A stretch of DNA of 64,000 bases, from the IMG/VR virus record IMGVR_UViG_3300029953_000001; one strand, given 5' to 3'. This document shows positions 40,777 through 62,472 of the stretch, piece after piece. Every line of letters starts with the position of its first letter. Position 1 is the first letter of the stretch. Origin of the DNA: a virus. The translations under genes were made by a program, and so were the position numbers. A model generated the notes under the pieces. The model made no database searches and had not been told where the DNA came from. It saw nothing but the letters and a program-made list of their open reading frames with translations.

Positions 40777-41169
40777 ATGGAAACGTTCGTAAAAGACATC
40801 AACGCCAAACTCCTTGGAGCCCAGCACGCCTACTATGTCCTCGCCGCCCCCATCATGACGGACGCCGAGTACGACACCCTCGAAGCCCAACTCAAGGGTG
40901 CTGTTGCCGCGAACCCGGACTTGGCGGAATTTGCGACCGCATTGAACGCCGTGGGTAGTGACATCGAAGATAGTCCGCTGACTTCCATGCTGAGGACTGT
41001 GGTTCCCAATCCCGCTGCGTTGGATGCAGCGATGGACAACCTCAACGCTCAAGCATCTGTCAGCACTGGTCGCATCAAGCACGTACGTCCCATGCTCTCC
41101 ATCGAGAACCAGTACACCAAGGATGACGTGGTGAAGTTCTTCAAGGAACTCCAAGGAACTCCAGACTAA
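40777..41169 (+). CDS. ligA: NAD-dependent DNA ligase, N-terminal fragment (domain Ia)
   Basis: HAYYVLAAPIMTDAEYDTL, VGSD, IKHVRPMLSIEN. Confidence 0.88.
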   Translation: METFVKDINAKLLGAQHAYYVLAAPIMTDAEYDTLEAQLKGAVAANPDLAEFATALNAVGSDIEDSPLTSMLRTVVPNPAALDAAMDNLNAQASVSTGRIKHVRPMLSIENQYTKDDVVKFFKELQGTPD

Positions 41170-41178
41170 GGGGACACT

Positions 41179-41406
41179 ATGAGAGCAGCCATTTACATAT
41201 GTGAAGCGCATGACGGTTGCATAGTCTCATGGACGCATGATGGGTTTCTCAACAAGTGCCCTATGTGTACCGCTAAAGACCAGATAGAGGAATTGAAACA
41301 AGTGATTGATGGGGCGGTTGAATTACTACCGGAGGCTCCTACACTTGCCAAGATAAACCTACAGAATATGACCACGATTTCAGGCGGAACGGAGGTAAAT
41401 TCATGA
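41179..41406 (+). CDS. hypothetical protein
   Basis: GGGGA RBS. Confidence 0.55.
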   Translation: MRAAIYICEAHDGCIVSWTHDGFLNKCPMCTAKDQIEELKQVIDGAVELLPEAPTLAKINLQNMTTISGGTEVNS

Positions 41407-41562
41407 GACCCAATGACATTATCTGCCCGTGTGGTGATGTATGTGGCAAGCGGTACCCCGCAACCGAGGTTGACCCCGGCTTTGCTGAGGGTATCGGCGA
41501 GAACTTTACATCGGAAGATGGTGCGTGGCACTGCTCACAGGACTGCCTTGATGAGAACAACG

Positions 41563-41916
41563 ATGAATAGCGAAATGAAAGCACAATTGACAGAGGCTAT
41601 AGTGCAGTATCTGAAGCTTTCTGGCCCGGTTGATTCAGATTATTGCATCGTAGCTCACTATGCTGTAGCGCGGAGCAACCTTATCTCGGTACTATCCAAA
41701 CTGAAGGAGGAAACTACCACGGTTCCACGCGACCTGTGTGGGGACATACAGGGACTACCCCCTGATGAGGTAGAATCATATCGGTTGGACGAGGCCCTCT
41801 TCGCGCTTACGGCTCTGGTCGAGGAGTTCAACTGCTTACCCAGAGTTCAGAAGACCTCAGTGCAAGAGTGCATGAAAGCCGCCAGAGACTACCGGGTGTT
41901 TGTGCCGACAGCCTGA
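41563..41916 (+). CDS. hypothetical protein
   Basis: Open frame; start uncertain. Confidence 0.5.
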   Translation: MNSEMKAQLTEAIVQYLKLSGPVDSDYCIVAHYAVARSNLISVLSKLKEETTTVPRDLCGDIQGLPPDEVESYRLDEALFALTALVEEFNCLPRVQKTSVQECMKAARDYRVFVPTA

Positions 41917-41922
41917 AGGAAC

Positions 41923-42615
41923 TTACCCCTGAAATTTTGCGGTCAGGTTTTTGTCACGGGTGAACCCCCCGCTATTACCGATGGCACTCTTAACTTGATT
42001 TGGATTCAAGGTAACATATGCGGTGGTACTCAGACCGTTGAAGGACTCTTCCATGAAGACACCATCATACCCGTTCTCCAACAGAACCCGTTTCGTCGCA
42101 GCTTTGCTCAGACCCAGATGCTCCCAAAAAGTGGCAGAAGCGTCCATGCGGTTCACCGCGTTCGGGCACTTGGAGTCGCCGGGGTGGGGTGGCCGACTCC
42201 CGCAAAGGAGACATGAGCCACTGCGAGATAGTGACCAACAGGGTGCGAAGAACTTGTCAGTTTTATTGGCACCGATAAACTCCGCATACTGCTGGCCGGT
42301 GATGGAGTCTTCCCCAAAGGGTCGAGCATCGAGCGGGTTGCCAATTTTCAAATACACAGGGATGGTCTTCGCCCCCTCAGGTCTTCCAAAAGTCCCACCA
42401 TTAGGGTTTCCGTGTCCCCCATCAGTGAACTTCTCACTATACTCAGGGTCAGGCGTGAAATAAGCCAAACCCGCGAAGGAGTCAAAATCAGCCGTAGTTC
42501 CATGATAGACACGGAGGGGCTGACCCACGCCGTCCACAACTTTAGACCCAGAGAACCATTGCTTGAACGCGGGTGTTTCTATTATCGGATTGAGAAACTT
42601 ACTCTGAAATTTCAT
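41923..42615 (-). CDS. ART-PolyVal-like ADP-ribosyltransferase domain protein
   Basis: TPAFKQWF..SKVVD..GQPLRVYHGT, YFT, PVYLKI.NP, GYDG, PNQVKSAIGN.G.F. Confidence 0.8.
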   Translation of the reverse strand: MKFQSKFLNPIIETPAFKQWFSGSKVVDGVGQPLRVYHGTTADFDSFAGLAYFTPDPEYSEKFTDGGHGNPNGGTFGRPEGAKTIPVYLKIGNPLDARPFGEDSITGQQYAEFIGANKTDKFFAPCWSLSRSGSCLLCGSRPPHPGDSKCPNAVNRMDASATFWEHLGLSKAATKRVLLENGYDGVFMEESFNGLSTTAYVTLNPNQVKSAIGNSGGFTRDKNLTAKFQG

Positions 42616-42654
42616 ACCTACTGTGGGTTTGATATTAGAAAAGGAGATGCACGG

Positions 42655-42987
42655 ATGAGCGACGAGGCTAAGAAAGAAATCGACAAGATTGTACGGGCAT
42701 CGCATGACTCTGGCTCTCATGTCGTATATGACATTTTTGATGGATTCAAAGCCCTGTCCCGTTTAGTGCAGGAACAAGGGCGTAAACGAACGGAGATGCT
42801 CAACGAGCGAAGAAGGAGAAAGGCCAGAGAAAGGTATGCCCTCAACAAGAAGCTGGGCATCCCCAACCGCAAACCAAAAGCGGCACCCGAACCGGAACTC
42901 CCGTATGAGGCTCCAACTAGCTGCTACTGTCATATGGGGTACCCTCCCTGTGGCTGGTGTACCAGAGAAATAGGGGATGAGGACTAA
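42655..42987 (+). CDS. hypothetical protein
   Basis: AAGGAG RBS; CYCH..PPCGWC. Confidence 0.65.
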   Translation: MSDEAKKEIDKIVRASHDSGSHVVYDIFDGFKALSRLVQEQGRKRTEMLNERRRRKARERYALNKKLGIPNRKPKAAPEPELPYEAPTSCYCHMGYPPCGWCTREIGDED

Positions 42988-43622
42988 ACACGTTTCATCA
43001 GTCTCCTCGCTTCCTCGGTGTGCTTCCACCCCTTTCCTCTAGCAGCACAGCCGGTTGGTGCCTGAGTTTGAAACCTTCGCTTCTGTGCCTCGCTTATGTT
43101 CTTCCTAGCTTCATCGGAGAATGGTTTATGCTTCTTCCCCTTATGAATCGCCGACAGCTTTGCTCTCACCGCAGCAGAGCGGGTCTCCCCCTTTCTACGG
43201 CGATTGGAGTCTGCAATTTTCTTCTTGGATTCCTCGGTGTGTCGGAACAGTTTCATCCTCTCTCTAATACCCTCAACCACCTGTGTCGAGTGTTTCCGAC
43301 CCGTCATCGGTGCCGTAGTGCTAACAGCCATGTTGTACTCGGCAGCAAGCGTTTTGATGTACCCAGCCTCCTTCTGACGCAGGTCTATCTCAAGCGTGTC
43401 CGGTGGGCATACTTCGAGGATTTCAAAAGCGAAGGCAACTTTACCATACAGGTTCCACGCGGCTTGAAGATGGGCGTTAGGGTGGGTGCCTTTGCTAAGC
43501 AGGGAAGAGTGTTTGTTGAATCGTTTTTGCGTCCACAGGGAACTCCCGATGTATAGCTTGCCGTTCACCAGATTGCGTATCTGGTAGATTGAAATAATTT
43601 TCTTCATATCCGCCGTTTTCAT
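42984..43622 (-). CDS. GIY-YIG homing endonuclease with NUMOD3 repeats
   Basis: SIYQIRNLVNGKLYIGSS; HTEESKKKI-type repeats. Confidence 0.92.
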   Translation of the reverse strand: MKTADMKKIISIYQIRNLVNGKLYIGSSLWTQKRFNKHSSLLSKGTHPNAHLQAAWNLYGKVAFAFEILEVCPPDTLEIDLRQKEAGYIKTLAAEYNMAVSTTAPMTGRKHSTQVVEGIRERMKLFRHTEESKKKIADSNRRRKGETRSAAVRAKLSAIHKGKKHKPFSDEARKNISEAQKRRFQTQAPTGCAARGKGWKHTEEARRLMKRV

Positions 43623-43651
43623 GTATCCTAGAAGTAGGAGAAAGTATCGAG

Positions 43652-45526
43652 ATGGAATCACCTGCGAGTTCCCTTACTAAGAATCCGGTAGTTTGTTTGT
43701 TTGAGGCCAAGCAAGACGGTGTTAGTGCCGAGCTATGCTACGTCAACGGGCGGCTGACCCAAGCTGTTACCCGTGGCACTGGCTCCGAAGGCGAGGATAT
43801 GACCGCTCAGGTCAGGGCTCTCCGTAATGTTCCTCAGGTTTTAGCTCAGGCTCCACTACTGGATATGGCAAAGGAGATTCGCGTTCGGGGCGAACTGGTC
43901 ATGCGTGACGGAGAACTCGACCGCATCAACGCGGAGGCGACTGCCAAAGGGGCTAAGACTTACGCATCAACCCGCAATCTTACTGCGGGAACTCTGAAAC
44001 AGAAAGACCTGTCAGTTGTCTCCAGCCGCGCCCTCATCCTGATACCGTGGGACATGTACTCCCCCACCGAAGACGCTAACTTGCCGGATTCGGCATATGA
44101 CCGGATGCAGCTATTGGAAAGTGTGGGGTTCCCCAAGTATCTCGGCATACGGGTGGAGAAGGAATCTGAAGTGATTCCCGCTATTGATGCTATCCTCGCT
44201 CTGAACTCCAAGTCCGACATCCGTGCAGACGGTGTGGTCATCAAGGTGGACTCGCACAAGCTTCGCAAGGAACTTGGCGTAGCATCGAAGTTCACGAACT
44301 GGATGACGTGCTTCAAGCCGCAGTCGGCATCAGGCACGACCTACCTCCGCGAAATCATCTGGCAGATTGGTCGTCAGGGTGCCCTCACCCCGGTGGCGAC
44401 GTGTGACCCGGTTGTGCTTGCTGGTGCATCGGTGACCCGTGCGACTCTCAACAACGAGACGTGGATTACCGCCATGGGCCTGAAGCTGGGAGCCAAGGTT
44501 GAGATGCTTCGCTCCGGCGATGTCATCCCGCAGATTACCAAGGTGCTGGACGACACTGGCGAGGACATCATCTTCCCCTCCGTCTGCCCTGAGTGCCAGA
44601 AGGTCATCACGGTATGGACTGACCCCAAGAGCAAAATCACCACTCGCTTCTGCGAGAACGGTGTATGCCCCGGTCGCGTGCGTGACCTGTTCAGCTACAT
44701 CGGCTCTCGCGACATCCTTGAAATTGATGGTCTGGCCGACGATATGGCGACCCGCATCATCAAGGGCGAGTTCGCACGCAACATCGGTGAGTTGTTCGAG
44801 TTCCAAGTTGAAGCTCTTCGTGAACTCAACATTCTTCAAGTCAAGTATGGTGAAGAGCCGGGTGAGACCAAGTTCCTTGCCTTGATGAACAAGCAGGGGT
44901 TCAACGTCACCGTCCTGAAGATGCTCCGCAGCATGGAGAAGGCCAAGACGGCCCCGTGGAACAAGTGGCTCTCTGCCTTCGGTATCCCGATGGTCGGTCG
45001 CACCTTGGGTAAGCTGCTGGCGAAGGAACTCAAGCTGGAGTCTGGTGACATGCTCACCCTGTGCTCCAAGCTGGAGGCTGCGTCCAAGAGCAACATCGAA
45101 GGCATGGGCGATGTCAAGAGCGAGATTCTGCTGAAGTGGTCTCTCGACCCTGTGAACCGTTCCATTTGCGAGGCCCTGTACCGTGCTGGTGTTCGTCCTG
45201 AGCCTACCGTCACGCAGAATGCAGGGGCTCAGCCTCTGGTTGGTGTGGCGTTCTGCATCACTGGCGAGTTTGACTTCGTAGACCGCGACGACCTCACGAA
45301 GAAGTTTGAATCTCTCGGTGCTGTTGCGAAGTCTGGCGTGTCCAAGAACCTCACCCACCTTATCGTGGGCGACTCCGGGGCCGGTAAGTCGAAGCTGACC
45401 AAGTTCGATGAACTGGTTGCCAAGGGTGCGAAGATTGAAAAGGTCGGGAAGGATTGGGTCGTCAAGACTCTGGCCGATGCTGGAGTCACGGTGAAGGCCG
45501 CAGGGTTTGCAACGGAGGCGGTCTAA
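43652..45526 (+). CDS. ligA: NAD-dependent DNA ligase, main fragment (adenylation, OB, Zn, HhH, BRCT)
   Basis: EAKQDG (KxDG), TRGTG..GED, RGE, DGVVIK, RATLNN, RSGDVIP, CPEC, FCITG. Confidence 0.93.
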   Translation: MESPASSLTKNPVVCLFEAKQDGVSAELCYVNGRLTQAVTRGTGSEGEDMTAQVRALRNVPQVLAQAPLLDMAKEIRVRGELVMRDGELDRINAEATAKGAKTYASTRNLTAGTLKQKDLSVVSSRALILIPWDMYSPTEDANLPDSAYDRMQLLESVGFPKYLGIRVEKESEVIPAIDAILALNSKSDIRADGVVIKVDSHKLRKELGVASKFTNWMTCFKPQSASGTTYLREIIWQIGRQGALTPVATCDPVVLAGASVTRATLNNETWITAMGLKLGAKVEMLRSGDVIPQITKVLDDTGEDIIFPSVCPECQKVITVWTDPKSKITTRFCENGVCPGRVRDLFSYIGSRDILEIDGLADDMATRIIKGEFARNIGELFEFQVEALRELNILQVKYGEEPGETKFLALMNKQGFNVTVLKMLRSMEKAKTAPWNKWLSAFGIPMVGRTLGKLLAKELKLESGDMLTLCSKLEAASKSNIEGMGDVKSEILLKWSLDPVNRSICEALYRAGVRPEPTVTQNAGAQPLVGVAFCITGEFDFVDRDDLTKKFESLGAVAKSGVSKNLTHLIVGDSGAGKSKLTKFDELVAKGAKIEKVGKDWVVKTLADAGVTVKAAGFATEAV

Positions 45527-45987: not shown

Positions 45988-46097
45988 GAGCCGATGTCAC
46001 CAATCGCCTACACCCATGAAGAGGCCCGTATCCTGTACGAGCAAGCCCTTGAAGCCGGGGAGATTCTAAGCTACAGCGAAATAATTCAAAAAATAGT

Positions 46098-46127
46098 TGT
46101 TCACTTTTCGAACTTTGGTAGTATTAT
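46098..46127 (+). promoter_or_regulatory. class A promoter of tRNA array 1
   Basis: TGTTCA-N18-TATTAT; leader ATG 6 nt downstream. Confidence 0.75.
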
Positions 46128-46133
46128 ACAGAC

Positions 46134-46211
46134 ATGAAGAACACGTTATCCATATCGTCAAGCTCTACCTCATCCAGTTCATGGACTGGCGGCGGCGTGG
46201 TGAACGTTTGA
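46134..46211 (+). CDS. Ser-rich attenuator leader peptide MKNTLSISSSSTSSSSWTGGGVVNV
   Basis: 9 Ser using all 6 codons plus TTA and ATA; lies between promoter and terminator ahead of tRNA-Ser/Leu/Ile genes. Confidence 0.8.
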   Translation: MKNTLSISSSSTSSSSWTGGGVVNV

Positions 46212-46249
46212 TACTGTGGATAAGTAAACACAGACTTCAGCAAGATACC

Positions 46250-46276
46250 AAAGCCGCCCAACTCGGGTGGCTTTTT
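46250..46276 (+). terminator. attenuator terminator 1
   Basis: AAAGCCGCCC-AACTC-GGGTGGCTTTTT; its 5' arm can alternatively pair with GGCGGC-G-TGGTG at 46191-46202. Confidence 0.85.
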
Positions 46277-46282
46277 AGTTTT

Positions 46283-46372
46283 GGAGAGATGGCAGAGTGG
46301 TCGATTGCACCACCTTGGAAAGGTGGCATACTCGCAAGGGTATCGAGGGTTCGAATCCCTCTTTCTCCGCCA
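46283..46372 (+). tRNA. tRNA-Ser(GGA)
   Basis: Cloverleaf, long variable arm, G73, CCA. Confidence 0.95.
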
Positions 46373-46386
46373 ACTTGTAAGCTTTA

Positions 46387-46493
46387 CTTTACTGTTGGGT
46401 GAGCGGCTTAAACCTAACTATGATGAAGTTCTTCGGGAAGTGTCATAGCACGAAGTACCGGGGTACCGCTGGTTCGAATCCAGCACAGAAAGG
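46387..46493 (+). ncRNA. tRNA-like RNA with extended hairpin in place of the anticodon arm
   Basis: Class II D arm, variable arm and GCTGG-TTCGAAT-CCAGC T arm; no CCA. Confidence 0.6.
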
Positions 46494-46498
46494 TTTGC

Positions 46499-46948
46499 AT
46501 GAAGTTCGATACGTACGTGGATGTACAGTGGAAGATTTGTGTGCAGTGTGGTGCTGAGCGGGTCTTCGGTAAGGAAGCCGAAGCGGTCGCGGAACGTATG
46601 GTGGGCAGGGGTACTCCACGTGAAGAGGCTGATGCCTATGTCCGAGAGGGTAACTGCTATCTGGAGTGTCCGACACCGGAGAAGCATAAGCCGGGGATGC
46701 CGATGGTACCGCTGGAGGAACTTGAGCACGAAGCGTACTACCACGGGAAGTGCCGCAACGCCACAGTAGCCCGGTGGGACGCGGAGAAGAAGCGGTTCAC
46801 GTACATGCGTGAGAAGTTTGGGCAGGTATACCCGGAGACGATTGGCTACTTTGTTGAGGCCAAGCCGGGGGAGCACAGATTTGATGAGTTCAAGCCATAC
46901 GGGAAGATGGAAGTCCCGCCGTTTGAAATCAAGTTGTATCAGAATTAA
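46499..46948 (+). CDS. hypothetical protein
   Basis: YYHGKCRNATVARWD. Confidence 0.75.
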   Translation: MKFDTYVDVQWKICVQCGAERVFGKEAEAVAERMVGRGTPREEADAYVREGNCYLECPTPEKHKPGMPMVPLEELEHEAYYHGKCRNATVARWDAEKKRFTYMREKFGQVYPETIGYFVEAKPGEHRFDEFKPYGKMEVPPFEIKLYQN

Positions 46949-47064
46949 GTTCAACGCCAAAATAAATGTGAGGTCAGCCGCTCATATTGCCTGAAAGCTG
47001 GACATATACAAGTGAGGGGTTAATTCTAAGCCGCCCCCAGCGTATGTACCAACAGGAGGCATTT

Positions 47065-47286
47065 ATGAGCATGACACACATTCGCAAGGCCACTGAGGCC
47101 GAGCACAACGCAGCGAAGCTGTTGCAAGCGGCACGATTGATTGGTGAGGTTGCAGCAGGGTACGACCGGAAGAGCAGCACCTGTGAGTGCTGTGGTCTGA
47201 CGGTTCAGGCCAACCGGCCCGAGTTCCTGAGGGGCATCGAATTGGATGCCATGGTGAAGAAGCTCGAACGGTTCGGTGGTTCGTAA
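47065..47286 (+). CDS. hypothetical protein
   Basis: GGAGG RBS; CECCG. Confidence 0.65.
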   Translation: MSMTHIRKATEAEHNAAKLLQAARLIGEVAAGYDRKSSTCECCGLTVQANRPEFLRGIELDAMVKKLERFGGS

Positions 47287-47292
47287 AAGTTT

Positions 47293-47378
47293 GGAGAGTG
47301 GGCAGGACGGTAATGCAGCAGTTTGCTAAACTGTACAACCGCAAGGTTGACCGGGTTCGACCCCCGGACTCTCCGCCA
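47293..47378 (+). tRNA. tRNA-Ser(GCT)
   Basis: Cloverleaf, long variable arm, CCA. Confidence 0.95.
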
Positions 47379-47383
47379 AAATT

Positions 47384-47471
47384 GGAGGCGTTGGGCATGT
47401 GCTAAGCCCACCCCGCTCGAAACGGGACGTTCCGCAAGGACTTGGGGGTTGAACTCCCTCCGCCTCCGCCA
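47384..47471 (+). tRNA. tRNA-Ser(CGA), atypical D and T loops
   Basis: Cloverleaf, CCA; D loop lacks GG, T loop TTGAACT. Confidence 0.85.
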
Positions 47472-47678
47472 AAATTTATGAAAGGTATTGCATGAGCGAA
47501 CTGTACTATCCCGAGTGCGACGGTCATCTGTTCAATGAGCAGATTCCAGCACAGGAGTTCCCTTCGGATACGAAGGCAGTCAAGTATTACAAGAGCAGGT
47601 ACGGTGGGCTCTTGATGGCAGTTGTCAAGGACAATGACCCGCAGTTGAGCATTGTCTACACTAGGAAATAAAAGTTTG

Positions 47679-47771
47679 GGAAGGTTGGCAGAGCGGTCGA
47701 TTGCGCTAGTCTTGAAAACTAGAGTGTCCTAGTGATAGGCACCGTGGGTTCGAATCCGACACCTTCCTCCA
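47679..47771 (+). tRNA. tRNA-Ser(TGA)
   Basis: Cloverleaf, long variable arm, U73, CCA. Confidence 0.92.
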
Positions 47772-47774
47772 GTT

Positions 47775-47916
47775 TGTACATACGCCGTGAAGCAGTCAGG
47801 CAAGACTGATACTACCAAGCATCGACGGGTACTTGGCTTTCTGGTGAGAAGAACCCTCAGTTGGGTACGGGGAACTGCCGCAAGGCGACGTGGATTGAAC
47901 CCTGACCGGATGTGCA
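47775..47916 (+). ncRNA. candidate multibranch structured RNA
   Basis: TGTACAT/ATGTGCA closing stem with several internal hairpins. Confidence 0.45.
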
Positions 47917-48107
47917 TGTTTATAGGAACGTATGACCCGCGAAGAGAAGGCTGAAAGAGTTCTACAAATCGCTGAGAAGTTCATCGCTGACCAGAAGATT
48001 GTGTGCTCTGAAGCGGTGTACCAGTCCGACCGGGTGATTGAGAACGCTTACGAGTTCATCGAAGCCATTTGTAACGTGGCCGGGTATTTCGAGTATGATG
48101 AAGATTA

Positions 48108-48184
48108 GTGCCCTTAGCTCAATTGGTCAGAGCGACGTGCTCATAACGCGGGGGTTCTCGGTTCAAGCCCGAGAGGGCGCACCA
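48108..48184 (+). tRNA. tRNA CAT anticodon, probably Ile2 (lysidine; reads AUA)
   Basis: Cloverleaf, G1-C72, C4-G69 and C5-G68, A73, CCA. Confidence 0.85.
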
Positions 48185-48212
48185 ACATTTCAAATTGGGA
48201 GTATTGGGTTAG

Positions 48213-48473
48213 ATGAACGAAGGCCAAATTTCCGATGAGCAAGTAGATCAGTTGAACAGCTACGAGCCGGTGAAGGAAGCGAGGACAAAGTTCCTCAAGC
48301 TTCTCGCCGCCTATGTGAAGACTGAGCCGAGTGACCCTGAGTTATTGGCTAAGGTCAAGGAAGCTGAAGTAGAGTACGAAGCTGAGTTCGCTGAGCGGCT
48401 CAAGCATGTGGTGGAGAACCCGCCGCAACCGAAGTCGATTCCACTACGCACAAGGACAGGATTCAAAGAATGA
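48213..48473 (+). CDS. hypothetical protein (leaderless)
   Basis: GTATTG 12 nt upstream of ATG. Confidence 0.65.
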   Translation: MNEGQISDEQVDQLNSYEPVKEARTKFLKLLAAYVKTEPSDPELLAKVKEAEVEYEAEFAERLKHVVENPPQPKSIPLRTRTGFKE

Positions 48474-48525
48474 ACACCGCTTTCACAACCCGCTTACGAA
48501 TACCCAACTCCAATTGAATAAATAT

Positions 48526-48612
48526 GGCGGCGTGGCTGGAACGGTATACACAGGAGACTTAAAATCTCTGGCCCTTCGGGGCATGAGGGTTCGAATCCCT
48601 CCGCCGCTACCA
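48526..48612 (+). tRNA. tRNA-Leu(TAA)
   Basis: Cloverleaf, long variable arm, A73, CCA. Confidence 0.92.
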
Positions 48613-48622
48613 AAAAGCTTAG

Positions 48623-48717
48623 GCTCCCGTAGCGTAGTGGTCTAACGCAACCGCCTTATAACCGGTTTAGCTCCAGATTAGAGCAAGACGTAGGTTCGAA
48701 TCCTACCGGGAGTACCA
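48623..48717 (+). tRNA. tRNA-Ile(TAT) with 23-nt variable region
   Basis: Acceptor GCTCCCG/CGGGAGT, loop CTTATAA, GCTC/GAGC variable hairpin, CCA. Confidence 0.8.
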
Positions 48718-49339
48718 ATTTTTCTTTATCCTCTTTGGATAGCTGTCCATGATCGAACTCCCAATGATGATTACGACAAAGACCCATTAGGTTTTTCAGG
48801 TTATTTATCTCACAGATAAGTGTGGCATCCGCAAACCCAGCCACAGGCTTGATGTGACACACGTCGATATGCTTAAAGTATCCGCATATCCAACATTCTT
48901 TCGGTAGAGGGGAGGCGAAAAACACCCTTTTGGCGTGTGCCCAAACAGTAGCGTCCCCATTAGCTTTTCTTTTGATACGTAATTCCCCTAATGTCACCCC
49001 CGACCAATCTTTAGAATTGGAAACCGCTAGTTTTCTACAAGTCTTGCAATACACTCTCTGGCTACTGATTGAGTCACCACATACTCGGCAATGACCAAGT
49101 TTTGGCCGTTTTGGTTTGAACTTGGAGGTAGCTAAAGCATTACATCTAGATGAACAAAATCTTGGATTAGTTGTGGTGTTTCCACAATGTTCACATGGTT
49201 TTGGGCGGAGGTGTTCCACTTGACAGGTCGCACTGCACTGGGCCGTCGTGTAGCCTAAACGTAAATTACGGTTGTGAGTTTTCAGTGGTCTTTCGAATTC
49301 TTTACCACATTTCGAACAAATGAGGGTTACGAGTGTCAT
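48656..49339 (-). CDS. HNH homing endonuclease overlapping tRNA-Ile antisense
   Basis: CWICGY..HIDVCHIK...NLMGLCRNHHWEFD. Confidence 0.88.
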   Translation of the reverse strand: MTLVTLICSKCGKEFERPLKTHNRNLRLGYTTAQCSATCQVEHLRPKPCEHCGNTTTNPRFCSSRCNALATSKFKPKRPKLGHCRVCGDSISSQRVYCKTCRKLAVSNSKDWSGVTLGELRIKRKANGDATVWAHAKRVFFASPLPKECWICGYFKHIDVCHIKPVAGFADATLICEINNLKNLMGLCRNHHWEFDHGQLSKEDKEKLVLPVGFEPTSCSNLELNRL

Positions 49340-49440
49340 GGTGTAGGGCTCCTGTATAAGACCTACGTAGTTCAATAAGTTTTTACCCCGACAATATATA
49401 ACCCTCCCCCACTACCAAAATTTTCTCAGTATTACTCTGC

Positions 49441-49851
49441 ATGAGCGAATACACTTACGACTATACCGACCGAGCTACACTCCTCCACCTCGAACCTACT
49501 CTCAACAACTATCAGAACCTCGCAGTCGAGACCGCCCTGTATAAAGGTCAGGGGGAATTCCAAGGCTTCTGCTACGTCCTCTTCAAGCTGGCCGGTGAAG
49601 CCGGGGAAATCTGCGAGAAGATGGGCAAGCTCCTCCGTGACAATGGCGTGGAGTGGGGCTCAAATCCCAAGGAGTGGCCCGAAGAAATCCGCCTGAACTT
49701 CAAGAAAGAATTCGGCGATGTGTTCTGGTACATCGCAGCCGGAATGAAGGAACTTGGCTACACGCTTCAGGACTGCGGAGAGACGAACGTCGCCAAGCTT
49801 CAGTCCCGGCAGGAGCGTGGCGTTGTCCATGGCTCAGGAGACGACCGCTAA
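49441..49851 (+). CDS. MazG-like nucleotide pyrophosphohydrolase
   Basis: LAGEAGEICEK, KEFGDVFWY, NVAKLQSRQERG..HGSGD. Confidence 0.88.
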   Translation: MSEYTYDYTDRATLLHLEPTLNNYQNLAVETALYKGQGEFQGFCYVLFKLAGEAGEICEKMGKLLRDNGVEWGSNPKEWPEEIRLNFKKEFGDVFWYIAAGMKELGYTLQDCGETNVAKLQSRQERGVVHGSGDDR

Positions 49852-55440: not shown

Positions 55441-55638
55441 ATGAGAACTGACGCTGACCGTTTTGAATGGCTGGAGACTCGTGAAGCTCACTTGATTACA
55501 CACCGGGAGCGTACTTCCGATGGGTACACAATCTGGTGGAACGTAGTAAAGCGGAGGAAGTCTATCTCGGGTCACCCGCTGGGGTCACCACAAGCTGCCA
55601 TCGACGCGGCAATGGATAGAAAGGTTCGACATGTTTAA
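55441..55638 (+). CDS. hypothetical protein
   Basis: AGGTG RBS; DADRFEWLE...AIDAAM. Confidence 0.6.
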   Translation: MRTDADRFEWLETREAHLITHRERTSDGYTIWWNVVKRRKSISGHPLGSPQAAIDAAMDRKVRHV

Positions 55639-56617
55639 CGGTGAGCTAGTCGGTCATGTACTGAACAGCGAAAAGCTGAGGCTGAACCGCATCATCATGG
55701 CGTTCGCGTCAGGCTCGTACCAGCATGGGGCACGTATCGAGGGTAAGTCTGACCTTGACGTGGCCGGTGTCTTCATCGGAACCCCAGCACAGGAACTCAC
55801 CATCGGCAACGAAGACCCAAAGAAGGACGGGCACGTTACCATCACCACGTCTCCTGACAGCCAGAAGAACAAGGTAGGCGATGTTGACCTGAAGGTGTAC
55901 AGCCTTCGGCGTTGGGCAGGTCTCGCCCTCAAGGGCAACCCAACCATCCTCAGCTACCTCTTCGTGCCTGACGCCATCAAGGACAGCTTCGTGACCCATC
56001 CCAGTGTATGGGACAAGTACATCCTGCCCAACAAGCATCTGTTCCTCGCGTCCGGTCATGCGTCGGCCTTCCTTGGTCTGGCGAAGTCCCAGTACGAACG
56101 CATCAACGGCCTGTCGGGTTCGGGCAAGCACGGGCAGCGTGACGAACTCATCAACGAGCACGGCTATGACTCCAAGGCCGGGATGCACCTTGTCCGCTCT
56201 CTGGACGAGTGCCTTGAGTTCCTGAAGACTGGGAGCATGACCTTCCCGCGTCCGAACGTGGATGTGCTGCTTGACATCCGTGCGGGAAACTGGTCTCTGG
56301 ACAAACTGAACGAAGCTTACTTCCAACTACGTGCAGATGTCGTAGCGGCTGAGGAAGCTTCACCGCTGCAACCTGAGTGCGACCGCAAGGCTGTAACCAA
56401 GCTGGTCGCTGACGCCATGATGGAACACTGGGACACCGACAATAAGAAGTGGATGAAGGAGTCACAGCGTTGCACTCCTCTCTCCATCTACCGTGCGGCC
56501 CTGAAGAGTGCCAACGAAGACGTGAAGTATCACACTGAGAAGTTGGCTCAGTCCGCGAAGCAGCTTGCTCAGCAGAACCAGTTCCTGAAGGATTTGCGGG
56601 AGTCATTGGCAAAATGA
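55631..56617 (+). CDS. Pol-beta superfamily nucleotidyltransferase (RlaP/PF10127-like)
   Basis: SGSYQHG...SDLDVAGVF, GNPT, GYDSKAGMHLVR. Confidence 0.85.
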   Translation: MFNGELVGHVLNSEKLRLNRIIMAFASGSYQHGARIEGKSDLDVAGVFIGTPAQELTIGNEDPKKDGHVTITTSPDSQKNKVGDVDLKVYSLRRWAGLALKGNPTILSYLFVPDAIKDSFVTHPSVWDKYILPNKHLFLASGHASAFLGLAKSQYERINGLSGSGKHGQRDELINEHGYDSKAGMHLVRSLDECLEFLKTGSMTFPRPNVDVLLDIRAGNWSLDKLNEAYFQLRADVVAAEEASPLQPECDRKAVTKLVADAMMEHWDTDNKKWMKESQRCTPLSIYRAALKSANEDVKYHTEKLAQSAKQLAQQNQFLKDLRESLAK

Positions 56618-57579: not shown

Positions 57580-58289
57580 TGGCTCCGAAGATGAAGGCGT
57601 CGAAATACGCTGTGAAGGGGTTCGGCATCACGGAGGAATACTCCGACGAACTCATCAAGAAGCATGGGCTGCTCAGCAACGGCAAGTTGGACATTGGCGT
57701 TGCTGGGCTGGCTCAGCTTCTTCAACGTAAGGCTGACAAGGAAGCGGAGAAGAAGTAATGTCACCTTGGGACTACATCGTCGCTCGATGGAACCTTGACT
57801 GGTACGCCTTCACTCACTTTGGTGGGTGGATTATCGTCCCCCTAGCTATCGCCTTTGGTATTTTCCTCTACAAGAACAGGTAACTACTATGAGTCTACTG
57901 CAAACGGAAGACCGCAACCAGATGAGCAAGGAAACCCTGAAGACTCTCGTGGGTGAGACCATCACCAGTGTGGATTTTCACGGAAGCCATGGGCCGGAGT
58001 ACGTTCTCCGCCTGTCTTCCGGTAGGGCGTTGTACATTACTCACAACGACTATACCAGAGACCTACACTTCAACTTCCTCGAAGGTACACTATGAAGCAA
58101 TGCGACCACGAGACCTGCCACTACTGCGACCGCATTGTACTACCGAATGTGCAGGAGTCAAGGGTGTTTATCACCAAAACTTGTCCCTACTGTGGCCGGG
58201 TTATCAGCGACGTGGCGAAAGACCCGGAAGACCGCTGGCCCCAGCGGCGAGGAACAGACGAAAGATTTTTCAAATAAATCAAAAATAGT

Positions 58290-58319
58290 TGTTTCAATTT
58301 CCGAACTATCAGGTATTAT
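58290..58319 (+). promoter_or_regulatory. class A promoter of tRNA array 2
   Basis: AAAATAGT-TGTTTC-N18-TATTAT, very similar to the 46098 promoter. Confidence 0.75.
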
Positions 58320-58357
58320 GTAAGAGAAGCAGAAAACAGCAGCACAAGGAAACTACC

Positions 58358-58459
58358 ATGACGTTAAAACAGACCAATTCGAAGCGGGGCATGTGGCAGC
58401 AGCATAATCGCCGCAGCACGGGTCTGTGTCTATCTCATGGTCGGGTGAAAATCACCTAA
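58358..58459 (+). CDS. attenuator leader peptide MTLKQTNSKRGMWQQHNRRSTGLCLSHGRVKIT
   Basis: AAGGA RBS; 13 of codons 4-19 are K/Q/N/R/M/W/H, the amino acids of the downstream tRNAs. Confidence 0.78.
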   Translation: MTLKQTNSKRGMWQQHNRRSTGLCLSHGRVKIT

Positions 58460-58484
58460 GCACCAACCGAGATTAGAATTACAG

Positions 58485-58511
58485 ACCCTAGCCAAAGCGG
58501 CTAGGGTTTTT
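58485..58511 (+). terminator. attenuator terminator 2
   Basis: ACCCTAGCC-AAAGC-GGCTAGGGT-TTTT; GGGTCTGT (58420-27) can alternatively pair with ACAGACCC (58481-88). Confidence 0.85.
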
Positions 58512-58569: not shown

Positions 58570-58645
58570 GGGGGAGTAGGCTCAACTGGCAAACCGATGG
58601 TCTCCAAAACCATTTTTCCGGGTTCAAATCCCGGCTCCCCCGCCA
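58570..58645 (+). tRNA. tRNA-Trp(CCA)
   Basis: Cloverleaf, G73, CCA. Confidence 0.92.
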
Positions 58646-58669
58646 AAAGGCAAAGTTTTGAAAAGATGT

Positions 58670-58744
58670 GGGGCGATTAGTTCAGTGGCAGAACGCCGAT
58701 CTGTGGCATCGGTTACTCGGGTTCGATTCCCGGATTGCCCCCCA
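58670..58744 (+). tRNA. tRNA-His(GTG)
   Basis: G-1/C73, cloverleaf, CCA. Confidence 0.95.
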
Positions 58745-58751
58745 AAAGTTT

Positions 58752-59006
58752 TGGCATGGGCGTAGCGGTACCCGCAAGGGATAAAAGACCGGTACCGGGA
58801 AACTGGTACAGGGAATCAACCGCCAGAACCTATGCTAGAAGCATCAGTAAGGCAAAGGCGTAGCCGGAAGTATTAGGGCGGCTGTGACACTGGTAGCGGA
58901 CGACGTTCGGGAAGTGAAGACCCCCACCTTACTTTTGAGTTAGACGGAAGACGCGGGTAACCAACCCTGCCTCACGGAATGGTGAGGAGCTTCGCAAAGC
59001 ACCGTC
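58752..59006 (+). ncRNA. three consecutive closed multibranch RNA modules
   Basis: Closing stems 58752/58837, 58846/58933, 58943/59006; GNRA loops. Confidence 0.5.
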
Positions 59007-59011
59007 GTTTT

Positions 59012-59101
59012 GTACCCGTGGTGTGAATTGGATTAGCCGCCACCCTCCGAAGGTGGGCTGACGAAAGTCTCATGCAGGTTCGAGTCCTGCCGGGTACACC
59101 A
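59012..59101 (+). tRNA. tRNA-Arg(CCG) with long variable arm
   Basis: CCACC-CTCCGAA-GGTGG; GAC-GAAA-GTC variable hairpin; CCA. Confidence 0.85.
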
Positions 59102-59108
59102 AGTCTTT

Positions 59109-59330
59109 GTGTGAAAGGGGAGGCGATGTGCCTCATCGGGCGTGATAGCCCGGATATGTCAGTAAATGCTGGCCGCACAAGCCAAGACGGTTCCGAGGAG
59201 GTTCGATACCTTCACCACTTGCAAGTGGGTCGTCGCGACGACACTGGAAAAGGTTCCGAGCAATCAGGATGCTCTCGGTTGAAAGGCCGGGAGGGGTGGA
59301 CAGGGAGTTCAGCATTCTCGCCCACATCCT
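59109..59330 (+). ncRNA. structured RNAs, one ending in a T-arm-like hairpin
   Basis: GGAGG-TTCGATA-CCTTC plus several hairpins; GTGGGT/GCCCAC closing stem. Confidence 0.45.
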
Positions 59331-59387
59331 AAGAACAAGGCACAGTACTTGCCTTTACCTGCTACGAACAGGATGTGCAAAATATAT

Positions 59388-59476
59388 GCGCCCGTAGCCT
59401 AGCGGATGAGGCACCAGACTACGAATCTGTTGAACGAGAGTTCTCTACAGAGGTTCGAATCCTCTCGGGCGCACCA
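59388..59476 (+). tRNA. tRNA-Arg(ACG) with long variable region
   Basis: Loop CTACGAA; 18-nt variable region; CCA. Confidence 0.88.
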
Positions 59477-60089
59477 ACTTTATGGTTTCAAGCGATAGGA
59501 GGTCGTTATCAAACTCCCAGTGGCAGTTACGACACAGAGGTAAGACGTTGCTGACATTGTTGATTTCGCCGAGAGTAGAATCAAGTGAGAAGGTTTTTAT
59601 GCCTTTGATGTGAGCAAGTTCACTGTGCTTACTATAACCACAGTACAAGCAAGGTAGTTTGAGAAGGTGTTTGTTCCATGAACGGTTGAACCGCCTGACG
59701 AAATCATAGATGTGGCTACGGTGCTTGCCTTTTACATAAGGTGAATTCATCGCCTCTTCAAGAGTCATAAGGCGGAAGTCTACTCGGATATACTCATTAG
59801 ACCCGTGGCGTTTGCGTAGCCGAAGGTGGGGAGTAAGTAGATGTTCCTTGTTTCCAGAACATGGGGAGCAGAAGGTGTAAGACCGGTGGGATGTTGAGCA
59901 TGTAAACTCAGCCCCGCAGGATTTACAAGTACGAGGTTTTGGTGGGTTTCTTTGAAGACCACGACGGAGTTTGGCTGAGCAGGAACGTGAGCAGAAGTTA
60001 CGACCGGGAGATGATCTACGGATTTCAGCTTCAGCCTTTTCAAATTCTACTTGGCAAGTTAGGCAAGTGACTTTTGTTTTAGTTTGCAT
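59445..60089 (-). CDS. HNH homing endonuclease overlapping tRNA-Arg antisense
   Basis: CLYCGY..HSELAHIK...NVLPLCRNCHWEFD; paralog of 48656. Confidence 0.88.
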   Translation of the reverse strand: MQTKTKVTCLTCQVEFEKAEAEIRRSSPGRNFCSRSCSAKLRRGLQRNPPKPRTCKSCGAEFTCSTSHRSYTFCSPCSGNKEHLLTPHLRLRKRHGSNEYIRVDFRLMTLEEAMNSPYVKGKHRSHIYDFVRRFNRSWNKHLLKLPCLYCGYSKHSELAHIKGIKTFSLDSTLGEINNVSNVLPLCRNCHWEFDNDLLSLETIKLVRPRGFEPL

Positions 60090-60152
60090 ACTCAAGGGGT
60101 TTAAAGTCAGATAGTATTTTCATTTATGATCTGAGTTCAATCCCTGATAACA

Positions 60153-60228
60153 GCCCCCGTCGTTCAACGGACAAGGACACCGACCTTCTAAGTCGTGGAT
60201 GTGAGTTCGATTCTTACCGGGGGCACCA
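60153..60228 (+). tRNA. tRNA-Arg(TCT)
   Basis: Cloverleaf, CCA. Confidence 0.93.
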
Positions 60229-60258
60229 AGTTTTGAGGCGAGAACATCCGTCTCGGTT

Positions 60259-60432
60259 TCGGGCACCAGTGGTTCCAGCCGTTGGTCACGACTAGACCTA
60301 GACAGATTCACGAGGGCTGGAACCTACGTGATGAGTCTGAACAAAGCACCGGACTCGTAATCCGGGGATGTGACGAGAGGGTTGGTCACCATGCGGCGTT
60401 GGCCGGATGTAGCTTTAGAAGTCAGTGCCCGA
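60259..60432 (+). ncRNA. structured RNA containing a degenerate tRNA-Thr(CGT)-like domain
   Basis: TCGGGCAC/GTGCCCGA outer stem; 10-bp stem 60271/60324; CCGGA-CTCGTAA-TCCGG. Confidence 0.5.
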
Positions 60433-60548
60433 TAAGTTCAATGGAGGTCATGCGTGTAAATCCTCCAGCAGAGGCAGTGTTCCGGCATCGTACCCATTCG
60501 ACCGGAACTGAGTAAGTCCGCTGTCCGGGAGCACCGGGTGAGAGTTGT

Positions 60549-60623
60549 TGGCAAGTGGTCTAATGGTATGATGCTCCGCTGTTACCGGAGAAGGTGTCGG
60601 TTCGAATCCGGCCTTGCCAGCCA
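60549..60623 (+). tRNA. tRNA-Asn(GTT), C38 variant
   Basis: U1-A72, G73, loop CTGTTAC, CCA. Confidence 0.9.
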
Positions 60624-60646
60624 TAGTTTGAGTTGAGGTTCCTTAG

Positions 60647-60713
60647 TTGCTTGTAGCTCAATGGTAGAGCAGCCGCGTTGGCGGCTGATGCGGGTTCGAC
60701 TCCCGCCAAGTGA
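60647..60713 (+). ncRNA. tRNA-like RNA with 4-nt anticodon loop, no CCA
   Basis: Canonical D arm GCTC-AATGGTA-GAGC and T arm; GCCGC-GTTG-GCGGC. Confidence 0.65.
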
Positions 60714-60951
60714 ACGAAAGGGACTAAGAGGGACGGATAGACATCTGGCGGGTAGCTCCCGTCTGTGGAACGTTCGTGAAATCCCAAGCCCTCCCGGTTT
60801 AGTAGCACAAGAAGGGTGACACCTACCCGGCGTTTCGCTTCGGCGATGAACGTACATGAAAGCCTACGTTAGAAGCGTAGAAGGCATGTGTCTTAGTTGA
60901 AGTGGTGTGACGCCGAAGAGAGAGTCGGCCTAAGTTTAGTAGCAGAGATGT

Positions 60952-61042
60952 TCAGGGGTAAAACGTAACTGGCAGCGTACTTGGCTGTTAACCAAGCGGG
61001 TAGCCATTCCCTCTGAGGGTTCGAGTCCCTCCCCCTGAGCCA
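60952..61042 (+). tRNA. tRNA-Asn(GTT) with long variable region
   Basis: CTTGG-CTGTTAA-CCAAG; 18-nt variable region; U1-A72, G73, CCA. Confidence 0.85.
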
Positions 61043-61059
61043 GTTTAGTAGCACAGTAT

Positions 61060-61158
61060 GCGGGGTAGGTGCCCTCTATCTGAGTCGCGACACACTCACG
61101 TCTTGACGCTCAGAGGGTAAGGTGCCACGGGGACGTGAGAATCTCCCCACCCGCACCA
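61060..61158 (+). ncRNA. CCA-ending tRNA mimic without D arm or anticodon loop
   Basis: GCGGG/CCCGC-ACCA acceptor; GGGGA/TCCCC T-like arm; branched GCCCTCT/AGAGGGT domain. Confidence 0.6.
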
Positions 61159-61174
61159 GTTTAGTTCCACATGT

Positions 61175-61248
61175 TCGGTCTTCGTTCAGTGGTAGGACGC
61201 TAGGTTCTGACCCTAGAAACCGGGGTTCGACCCCCTGAGACCGAGCCA
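61175..61248 (+). tRNA. tRNA-Gln(CTG)
   Basis: Cloverleaf, U1-A72, CCA. Confidence 0.92.
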
Positions 61249-61336
61249 AGTTTGATGTCGGCAATACCGGTAGTATGTTACCGATAAAGCCTAGTTTTAG
61301 CTGTATCCGGCACAATTGTACCGCTTACAGGGATAT

Positions 61337-61423
61337 GCGTTCGTGGCAGAGTGGCTTATGCACCTGACTCTTAATCAGCGGGAGAGATTCCCAACGGGGG
61401 TTCGAATCCCTCCGGACGCACCA
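61337..61423 (+). tRNA. tRNA-Lys(CTT) with class II body (long variable arm)
   Basis: D arm GCA-GAGTGGCTTA-TGC; loop CTCTTAA; GGGA/TCCC variable hairpin; CCA. Confidence 0.85.
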
Positions 61424-61443
61424 AGTTTAGATGTACCAGTTTT

Positions 61444-61520
61444 GCGTCGGTCGTATAGCGGATTATTATACTCGGCCCTTACCCGAGATGACGGTGGTTC
61501 GAATCCACCCCGGCGCACCA
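61444..61520 (+). tRNA. tRNA-Lys(CTT), C33/C38 variant
   Basis: CTCGG-CCCTTAC-CCGAG; CCA. Confidence 0.82.
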
Positions 61521-61561
61521 AAGTTTTGCAAAGGAACTATATGAAACGTTTGCCCAAATTC

Positions 61562-61637
61562 GGGGTTGTAACTCAAATGGCTAGAGTCCCGCCTTTTAAG
61601 CGGTGAGATTTCGGTTCGATGCCGAACGGCCCCACCA
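61562..61637 (+). tRNA. tRNA-Lys(TTT)
   Basis: Loop CTTTTAA; CCA. Confidence 0.9.
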
Positions 61638-61707
61638 TAATTTGTACCTACAGTAGGTTAGTCATGCTGGTTTTTCGACTATCGCATACCTCTTATAGGG
61701 GGTTCAA

Positions 61708-62394
61708 ATGCGAAGATTAATGGAAAAACAGAATGAAGCAATTACACTGAGGGTACAGAATCGGCTTTCATTGAAAGAAATTGCGCTTCGACTGGGAGTA
61801 GCCAAGGGTTCTGCCAGTTTATGGTTACGTGATTACCCCCTAAGTAAGGAAGAACTTGTTGATAGACGCAATACATCGGGGCTCCTCAATAAGCCTTCCT
61901 GTTGTCATGATAAAACGTGTATTACATGTGGCGGTTCGTTTACCCACGGTAAGCTGTCTCAGAGGCACTGCTCTAGGAAATGTGCTTCGAGGGAGGGAGG
62001 GAAACAGTCGAAGCAGTCGTGGGATAGAAGACGGGCTGTACTACTAGTAAAATGGAAGTCAGGAGTAATAGTTCCATCGGAACGATCAGCCAAAGGTTAT
62101 CTGATAATTGAGCGGGGAAGGAAATGCGAGGACTGTGGGTGGAGTAAAGTGAACCCCAAATCCCTCACAGTTCCAATTGAACTCGAACATGTAGATGGGG
62201 ATTGCTACAATAACAGCTATAGTAATTGTAGGTTGCTTTGTCCTAATTGTCACTCACTGACCCCCACGTATAGGGGGATGAACATGGGTAAGGGCAGGGG
62301 TAGGAAGTTATCCAAGGTTGTAAGTGCATGGGCTAAGGAACGCAATGTCCGTCTGAACTCTAAAGGTGGAACCGACTTAGCCCAAGTAATGTAG
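61708..62394 (+). CDS. HNH homing endonuclease with N-terminal HTH
   Basis: SLKEIALRLGVAKGS; LEHVDGD..NN..SNCRLLCPNCHS. Confidence 0.9.
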   Translation: MRRLMEKQNEAITLRVQNRLSLKEIALRLGVAKGSASLWLRDYPLSKEELVDRRNTSGLLNKPSCCHDKTCITCGGSFTHGKLSQRHCSRKCASREGGKQSKQSWDRRRAVLLVKWKSGVIVPSERSAKGYLIIERGRKCEDCGWSKVNPKSLTVPIELEHVDGDCYNNSYSNCRLLCPNCHSLTPTYRGMNMGKGRGRKLSKVVSAWAKERNVRLNSKGGTDLAQVM

Positions 62395-62395
62395 T

Positions 62396-62472
62396 GCCTC
62401 GGTCGTCCAGCGGTCTAAGACGCCTCTCTCATAAGGAGGAAATCGTCGGTTCAAATCCGACCCGAGGTACCA
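62396..62472 (+). tRNA. tRNA-Met(CAT), elongator
   Basis: Cloverleaf, loop CTCATAA, CCA. Confidence 0.88.

Follow-up and report, generated by a model that had tools for sequence, protein, structure and literature searches.

Candidate ribosome-mediated attenuators ahead of tRNA arrays in a large phage, with leader codons matched to the tRNAs downstream

Leader-peptide transcription attenuators are known from amino-acid operons, e.g., trp, thr, leu, ilv and pheST. The reasons why phages carry transfer RNA (tRNA) genes have long been debated, with compensation for codon bias set against the replacement of cleaved host tRNAs. Here, a 64,000-nucleotide (nt) stretch of virus DNA (IMG/VR record IMGVR_UViG_3300029953_000001; the whole stretch is called the window below) was analysed, in which two short leader open reading frames (ORFs), A and B, each stand ahead of a tRNA array of the same letter. 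Judged from its sequence, the element ahead of array A would be a ribosome-mediated transcription attenuator that serves as a gauge of tRNA supply, a reading to which we give a probability of roughly 0.8. Codon match, alternative pairing in predicted folds, conservation and array-by-array tailoring are all found in the sequences compared.

In published accounts, the Salmonella his attenuator defaults to termination if its leader is untranslated (PMC11805395), and whiB7 is induced by knock-down of tRNAs and of synthetases (PMC10274678). As to phage tRNAs, tRNA-Tyr of T5/SP15 counters retron-Eco7 and tRNA-Lys counters PrrC (PMC11555353), and a T5 tRNA is reported to counter PARIS (PMC11464382). 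In a literature search, with most subscription journals outside its scope, no description of tRNA genes controlled by a leader-ORF attenuator came up.

Leader ORF A (46134–46211, plus strand) has 25 codons, MKNTLSISSSSTSSSSWTGGGVVNV, with its ATG at 46134 and its stop at 46209–46211. Its letters are exactly those given by the initial annotation, which had proposed it as an attenuating leader peptide, and its translation is predicted. The sensing block, codons 5–16 (46146–46181, plus strand), consists of nine Ser codons, TTA, ATA and one ACC. That the leader codons match the tRNAs downstream, as that annotation had claimed, was upheld by counting: 11 of 24 leader A codons are read by the tRNAs of array A versus 2.0 expected from the usage of the long plus-strand ORFs of the window (11,895 codons), p = 1.3e-6. 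The nine Ser codons do cover all six Ser codons, as also claimed, but this is not significant alone (P = 0.15) and was dropped as stand-alone evidence. With TTA and ATA included, leader A matches 6/6 tRNA classes of its array (P = 0.001 with phage usage, 0.034 with uniform usage).

The predicted promoter A (46085–46127, plus strand) comprises an A/T-rich tract, a TTGTTC/TGTTCA-like −35 region and a TATTAT −10; the proposed TGTTCA (46098–46103), 18-nt spacer and TATTAT (46122–46127) are present in the sequence. Consensus promoter matches near leader A are not above chance (9 vs. 7.0 ± 2.7); the assignment is based on the motif being common to other gene starts and to homologues: it recurs at 58282 and upstream of several long ORFs, and TATTAT is kept in 8/8 Ser-array loci scanned. 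The ATG lies 6 nt past the −10, and long ORFs that start 6–8 nt beyond a −10 are also found at 3290, 25774, 39348, 40763 and 50376, which makes the predicted leaderless start of leader A plausible. Among homologues, the spacing varies: L031 and L032 share the 6 nt of the window, L001, L034 and G003 have 9–10 nt, and L036 and L038 have ~50 nt (L numbers denote related loci, G numbers related phage records), so that the leaderless start is not conserved. An antisense sigma-70-like promoter match (10/12; 46152–46123, minus strand) crosses the leader start and is probably a by-product of the TATTATA sequence.

Two mutually exclusive RNA structures, an antiterminator and a terminator, are predicted to compete for the GCCGCC hexamer, in agreement with what the initial annotation had proposed. 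The 5′ strand of the antiterminator (segment 2, 46191–46202, plus strand, codons 20–23) pairs with the shared strand (segment 3, 46246–46258, plus strand), which serves as antiterminator 3′ strand and terminator 5′ arm; GGCGGC (46191–46196) and TGGTG (46198–46202) face GCCGCC (46253–46258) and TACCA (46246–46250), respectively. This antiterminator has a folding energy of −26.3 kcal/mol (z = −3.08, 1/200 shuffles as good), and the pairing of segment 2 with 46246–46258 in the nascent fold reaches P = 1.0, with 0/100 shuffles as high. The intrinsic terminator A (46250–46282, plus strand), identified by folding and conservation, has a stem at 46250–46274 and a U-tract to 46276, followed by four further U before tRNA-Ser(GGA) begins at 46283; its energy is −16.5 kcal/mol (0/200 shuffles as good). 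A rule for strong terminators picks out four on the plus strand of the 64 kilobases (kb), two of which directly precede the two arrays, and no hairpin inside array A passes it. A small hairpin (46174–46189, plus strand) is predicted 5′ of the antiterminator strand, with a similar one in G002, and could be an RNA polymerase pause that aids coupling of transcription and translation.

The effect of a ribosome was modelled by folding with two footprint sizes, using nascent RNA that ends short of the terminator 3′ arm; folding of the whole transcript masks the switch, the terminator prevailing. In the absence of a ribosome, the probability that the terminator 5′ arm pairs with upstream sequence is 1.0. 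This value stays at 1.0 with the A site at codons 2–15 or 2–16 and falls to 0.13 from codon 17–18, and the switch is thus predicted at codons 16–18, while the Ser block of leader A ends at codon 16. Among the homologous loci, L001, L031 and L034 have a predicted switch point that moves with the block end, while in L032 it comes 2–3 codons early. Based on these folds, the terminator would be released by rapid decoding of the leader and stay sequestered if the ribosome is slow or missing.

The initial annotation had named, as evidence that would count against it, homologous loci with neither Ser run nor alternative pairing. Such loci are not what was found: a Ser-run ORF and a terminator are kept in 8 of 9 Ser arrays. 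These nine, reached by a ligase anchor or by tRNA searches of whole records, comprise five metagenome loci and those of the window, G002, G003 and G006. Of 35 metagenome ligase loci, 5 extend as far as a tRNA-Ser cluster, each with leader and terminator; the other 30 have no tRNA-Ser within reach and are therefore neutral. The leader ORF is open in 8/8 aligned homologues, the gaps in the Ser run are all multiples of 3, and the Ser codons switch between TCN and AGY across the eight aligned leaders. The shared hexamer occurs as GCCGCC, GCCGTC, GCCGCT or GCCACC, and in the five closest leaders both the upstream partner and the terminator 3′ arm change in step with it. In the terminator alignment (8 sequences), 96.4% of cells are paired and 3/7 pairs are changed on both sides, counts that are inflated by relatedness and were made for the terminator only. 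The sequence-only alignment A3 misregisters segment 2 (3 columns in two rows), and antiterminator partners were therefore taken from per-sequence folds, in which the pairing is above shuffles in 5/8 Ser leaders (0–4 of 100).

A second switch, absent from the initial annotation, provides an internal replicate with other codons and another array. The predicted promoter B (58282–58319, plus strand) has the same motif as promoter A and is followed by leader ORF B (58358–58459, plus strand; 33 codons, MTLKQTNSKRGMWQQHNRRSTGLCLSHGRVKIT), which has a Shine-Dalgarno sequence, AAGGA, at 58346–58350. Array B tRNAs read 16 of 32 leader B codons versus 8.1 expected (p = 0.002). The match is specific to the array behind each leader, with z = 6.6 on array A vs. 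−1.0 on B for leader A, and z = 3.2 on array B vs. 0.8 on A for leader B. The predicted antiterminator B (58420–58488, plus strand), in which GGGTCTGT (58420–58427) pairs with ACAGACCC (58481–58488), reaches −34 kcal/mol (z = −5.99, 0/200 shuffles as good), and without a ribosome the arm of the intrinsic terminator B (58483–58511, plus strand, from folding) is predicted to be sequestered with P = 1.0. Array B (58570–62927, plus strand) holds tRNAs for Trp, His, Arg (three), Asn (three), Gln (two), Lys (three) and Met and one unassigned tRNA.

The search was extended to related phages by ligase-anchored scans (8 viral loci) and by tRNA searches in five records, G002–G006, with 17 regions examined. 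The counts for G002–G006 hold among the matches listed, with 31 further matches outside, and small clusters may be missed. The nearest record, G001, is identical to the window at both leaders and was left out of the count of relatives; in it, more Lys and Arg tRNAs of array B lie beyond the window end. In viral contigs, the exact promoter pattern was found 0 times, the RlaP protein used as an anchor gave no relative, and a back-translated leader pattern gave 3 matches, i.e., L001 again and two unrelated ones without tRNA. Together with the two of the window, 22 arrays were collected, which fall into recurring blocks: Ser/Leu-TAA/Ile; Trp/His/Arg/Asn/Gln/Lys/Met; Thr/Ile/Gln; Val/Gly/Ala/Asp/Glu/Cys; Tyr/Leu; and Pro/Met/Phe.

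A matched leader was found at 19 of these 22 arrays, 12 by a composition-blind rule and 7 by eye. The rule takes the strongest terminator within 450 nt and the longest ATG ORF ending 0–60 nt before it; the leaders so found are enriched in codons of their own array (11/12 with p < 0.05, and one with p = 0.056, scored from its second in-frame ATG), and their stop-to-hairpin distance is 19–38 nt. At the seven picked by eye, the rule had missed weak U-tracts, settled on a more distant hairpin or returned nothing; each of these leaders has p < 0.05, and they are open to selection bias. All codon-match scores, for all phages, used the codon usage of the window as background. In G003, which is rated complete, six leaders face six arrays, and none of the other pairings among the 720 scores as high as the true one (summed z = 23.0 vs. 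18.1 for the next). G005 has its Tyr and Leu tRNAs and one Ser tRNA in a joint array, behind a merged leader of Leu, Ser and Tyr codons that matches 7/7 tRNA classes. Thus, the covariation of leader codons with tRNA content, suggested earlier as a check, is seen across six array types.

What the leaders sense was approached through isoacceptor coverage, using a null model in which amino acids are fixed and synonymous codons redrawn over the first two thirds of each leader. With the usage of each phage, 22 leaders match 146/165 tRNA classes vs. 116.7 ± 3.6 expected; with uniform synonymous usage, 19 leaders match 129/148 vs. 109.1 ± 3.5. Since homologues are non-independent, the figure for G003 alone is the fairer one (40/47 classes vs. 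33.9 expected, P = 0.0009). This excess points to sensing at the isoacceptor level and fits a sampling of individual tRNA species. Sequence alone cannot part tRNA shortage from amino-acid shortage, and the coverage favours the former. Phage tRNAs rescue infection from tRNA-cleaving defences (PMC11555353), which makes tRNA cleavage a plausible trigger.

In the proposed mechanism, transcription would begin just 5′ of the ATG and a ribosome would load onto the leader, while the first structure to form in the nascent RNA would be the antiterminator, in which the terminator 5′ arm is held. A ribosome moving past codon 16 would melt the antiterminator and let the terminator form, stopping transcription 6 nt before tRNA-Ser(GGA). 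A ribosome held at codons up to 15–16, or no ribosome, would leave the antiterminator intact, so that tRNAs and cargo ORFs would be transcribed, and the fresh tRNA would bring decoding back to speed, completing a feedback loop. The likeliest natural trigger, and the least certain step, is loss of usable tRNA, e.g., to host tRNA nucleases. At the level of the clade, we consider it slightly better than an even bet that these elements form a modular surveillance of the tRNA pool, in which up to six leaders divide the code, each sampling the isoacceptors of its block, and blocks are transcribed on demand when those tRNAs are lost to host defences or stress, an inducible, codon-resolved counter-defence that would need only RNA and the ribosome.

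Compared with attenuators of the his/trp type, five of six testable features were found in the sequence and predicted folds, namely a short ORF between the promoter and the first tRNA, control codons tied to the array, a terminator ahead of it, an antiterminator exclusive with the terminator, and a predicted stall that spares, and passage that covers, the antiterminator strand. The sixth, an anti-antiterminator hairpin by which an untranslated leader would terminate transcription, was not. The initial reading of a Ser/Leu/Ile-sensing attenuator is thus supported by codon match, pairing and homologues, whereas the default-off 1:2 hairpin of his-type systems is missing. As in his (PMC11805395), a control-codon ORF, an antiterminator and a terminator are combined, and a stall is predicted to give read-through; in contrast to his, the untranslated phage leader is predicted to default to read-through. 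Unlike the attenuators of amino-acid operons, the regulated genes are phage tRNAs, isoacceptors would be sampled, and paralogous switches would divide the code. In Rfam, leader A scores below threshold against Phe_leader (RF01859, 23.8 of 55 bits) and Trp_leader (RF00513, 17.6 of 41), and leader B matches no leader family. A T-box riboswitch was rejected: gathering-score matches in the window are tRNA only, and none is a T-box among the leader matches at E <= 10.

A similar logic is described for the upstream ORF (uORF) of mycobacterial whiB7, where efficient translation leads to termination and poor translation to antitermination, with composition setting what is sensed (PMC10274678). The likeness is one between the logic of predicted folds and a published model, and membership is not claimed. 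Unlike whiB7, which is one broad sensor of a transcription factor, the phage leaders would be array-specific sensors of tRNAs, and the genes downstream are tRNAs and uncharacterised ORFs rather than whiB7 with its promoter feedback. The polycysteine small ORFs of mycobacteria (10.1101/834739) are leaderless, as predicted for leader A, and serve as ribosome-based sensors with a run of one residue and independent loci, although they control how translation of the following gene is initiated, whereas a terminator before RNA genes is found here. The trn L-array of Anabaena resembles the phage arrays in its spare tRNAs under translational stress and in the HNH genes within it (PMC8421152, PMC10272220). 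However, it is a single block under a DNA-binding repressor, TrcR (PMC10272220), and the terms "attenuat" and "leader" are absent from PMC8421152. With the counter-defence tRNAs of other phages, the arrays share a likely selective reason, the replacement of host-cut tRNAs (PMC11555353); in that source, expression of the T5/SP15 tRNAs is ascribed to a strong promoter, and the same two terms are absent.

Several observations weigh against this reading. When the complete transcript of leader A is folded to equilibrium, the terminator prevails even with a ribosome on the Ser block (P ~1.0), so that the switch must be kinetic; the smaller footprint also lets the antiterminator re-form with the ribosome at the stop (P = 0.98). 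Taken together, the equilibrium terminator and the re-pairing of segment 2 behind the ribosome mean that timing decides the outcome, and the mechanism assumes transcription–translation coupling in the phage host. The antiterminator pairing is within shuffles in L036, L038 and G003 (12, 34 and 25 of 100), and homologous leaders are non-independent samples. Motifs resembling a −10 follow tRNA ends within the arrays of L034, G003 and G006, and such internal motifs may bypass the switch in several relatives. No usable leader was found at 3/22 arrays, i.e., the Val/Gly/Ala array of G004, the Ser array of G006 and a CTA cluster of G003; the leader of the G006 Ser array is degenerate, keeping a Ser stretch and terminator without an in-frame start. 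The match is also imperfect elsewhere: G002 has tRNA-Leu(TAA) and a leader without TTA, the Ser leader of G003 has ATA while no Ile tRNA was found in its array, the Tyr/Leu leader of G003 scores z = 3.1 on the Ser array vs. 2.4 on its own, and 19/165 tRNA classes are missed by the leaders. Finally, the Pro/Met/Phe leaders of G003, G004 and G005 are matched in codons and lack a U-tract terminator.

The attenuator could instead read amino-acid starvation or general translation stress, the tRNA blocks being a nutrient or stress response, an explanation that we regard as unlikely. It would share the predicted folds, in which any stall in codons 2–16, or no ribosome, gives read-through, and it would account for leader codons without a cognate array tRNA, e.g., six TCN in the merged leader of G005. 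The whiB7 uORF answers amino-acid limitation and antibiotics (PMC10274678), and translational stress turns on the trn operon of Anabaena (PMC10272220). However, the synonymous choices cover more isoacceptors than two null models allow, and ATA stands in 8/8 and TTA in 6/8 Ser leaders despite their rarity (each ~0.4–0.5% of window codons). Extra tRNA would be no remedy for a missing amino acid, and six tailored leaders would be needless for a general stress sensor.

An attenuator gauging tRNA supply was also weighed against explanations in which the leader plays a lesser part. A phage or host antitermination protein might throw the switch at a set infection time, with the leader modulating it or being a relic; alignments A3 and A4, however, conserve no sequence beyond the promoter, control codons and paired strands, and the codon tailoring holds across phages whose ligases are 48–79% identical to that of the window. 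We thus find such a protein very improbable, even though the window is part of a genome, which leaves room for it, and the Pro/Met/Phe leaders without U-tract indicate that outputs vary within the family. Slightly less credible still is that the ORF is a small-protein gene with an ordinary terminator, the tRNAs owing their expression to internal promoters or constitutive leak-through, with the pairing incidental. A terminator 20–40 nt past a stop is indeed ordinary gene anatomy, internal −10-like motifs exist, the terminator dominates at equilibrium, and the G006 Ser array is retained despite its broken leader. Against this stand the peptide composition, which tracks array content across six array types, the three strands that change in step, and the lack of a Pfam family match for both window leader peptides.

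Further observations were made on the arrays of the relatives. In the Pro/Met/Phe leaders (L018 ~10940–11050; L019 ~8300–8480, minus strand; L025 ~7410–7590), the fold predicted for a ribosome at the stop includes pairing to the first tRNA-Pro, on its 5′ strand, and control is possibly exerted at tRNA folding or processing. An Ile2-like CAT tRNA of G005 (G3:C70; L023 6644) sits in the Trp/His/Arg array, whose leader (~6362–6455) carries ATA as its fourth codon; here, codon and tRNA may have moved together. The leaderless cluster of G003 (L016 8748–9668, minus strand) contains three CTA-anticodon (amber-reading) and two unassigned tRNAs, and a degenerate tRNA-Ser(GGA), detected at a relaxed ARAGORN threshold only, comes first in the G002 array (L001 16482–16570). 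In G006 (L026 ~6640–6880), ~170 nt of promoter and 5′ untranslated region are common to the Ser array and the leader of the Trp/His array, which may reflect either real recombination or an assembly chimera.

Array A lies on the plus strand and, by tRNA search, comprises tRNA-Ser(GGA) (46283–46372), tRNA-Ser(GCT) (47293–47378), tRNA-Ser(CGA) (47384–47471), tRNA-Ser(TGA) (47679–47771), a tRNA with anticodon CAT (48108–48184), tRNA-Leu(TAA) (48526–48612) and tRNA-Ile(TAT) (48623–48717). The CAT tRNA, which the initial annotation took for an Ile tRNA, is labelled Met by ARAGORN; however, it has the Ile2 marks G3:C70, C4:G69 and C5:G68. The tRNA-Ile2 signature is given in PMC1635315 as G3/A3 with C70/T70 plus C4:G69 and C5:G68. 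Compared with E. coli, 8/10 among the matches listed are tRNA-Ile, with weak E-values. It is thus likely an Ile2 tRNA, predicted to read ATA after lysidine modification, and ATA would then be read by two tRNAs of array A.

Two cargo ORFs lie within array A. The first, of 149 amino acids (aa; 46499–46948, plus strand), matches phrog_18490; it is also found within the Ser array of L001 and L034 (~55% identity), and an Atlas search of its protein gave unnamed viral clusters only, with no family. The second, of 86 aa (48213–48473), is preceded by a degenerate −10-like motif (the feature spans 48201–48473, plus strand), which may act within the array as a promoter of its two distal tRNAs. The caveat raised earlier, that this site may transcribe these tRNAs independently, gains some support: the window motif is a degenerate TATTGG, whereas L001 has a canonical TATTAT at the corresponding position, 6 nt before the ATG of the homologous gene and upstream of tRNA-Leu(TAA), in a locus whose leader lacks TTA. 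An HNH nuclease ORF on the opposite strand (48656–49375) runs into the 3′ part of tRNA-Ile(TAT), and further HNH ORFs lie in or beside the arrays at 59445–60095 (minus strand) and 61708–62394 (plus strand). At gathering score, Rfam gave no match in the long array spacers 47780–47925, 58750–59010, 59100–59385, 60230–60545, 60720–60950 and 61060–61155; the last of these is tRNA-like at its ends, where ARAGORN made no call.

By gene content, the source is a large (jumbo) phage, uncultured, of whose genome the window is a part. In addition to 22 tRNA genes in the two arrays, the window encodes a thymidylate synthase, a helicase, an NAD-dependent ligase, MazG, RlaP and homing nucleases. The RlaP RNA-repair nucleotidyltransferase (55631–56617) and the MazG-like gene (49441–49851) lie between the arrays, and RlaP could serve RNA or tRNA repair. 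The ligase gene appears split (40777–45526): a 130-aa ORF at 40777 resembles the N-terminus of full-length relatives and is set apart from the part at 43652 by two minus-strand ORFs, one a GIY-YIG-type homing nuclease and the other with an ART-PolyVal match, and Rfam at gathering score found no intron in the region. Contigs carrying relatives of the ligase reach 463 kb. The ligases of cultured phages are only 30–32% identical to that of the window (best among the matches listed), and the search of cultured phages gave tRNA-level matches only, the leader itself having none. A ligase scan of species genomes (80 loci) gave ligases of 28–34% identity only and indicated no host.

With a sensor at each tRNA block, the sequence would show which quantity the phage keeps track of, i.e., the speed of decoding at particular codons, and blocks wired to sensors favour on-demand replacement over fixed supplementation. 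The hypothesis is within reach of a 200-nt reporter, with no phage culture needed. If it holds, attenuation would be extended to tRNA genes and to viruses, and the leaders may offer a sequence signature for tRNA-depleting host defences as well as ready-made, codon-specific tRNA biosensors.

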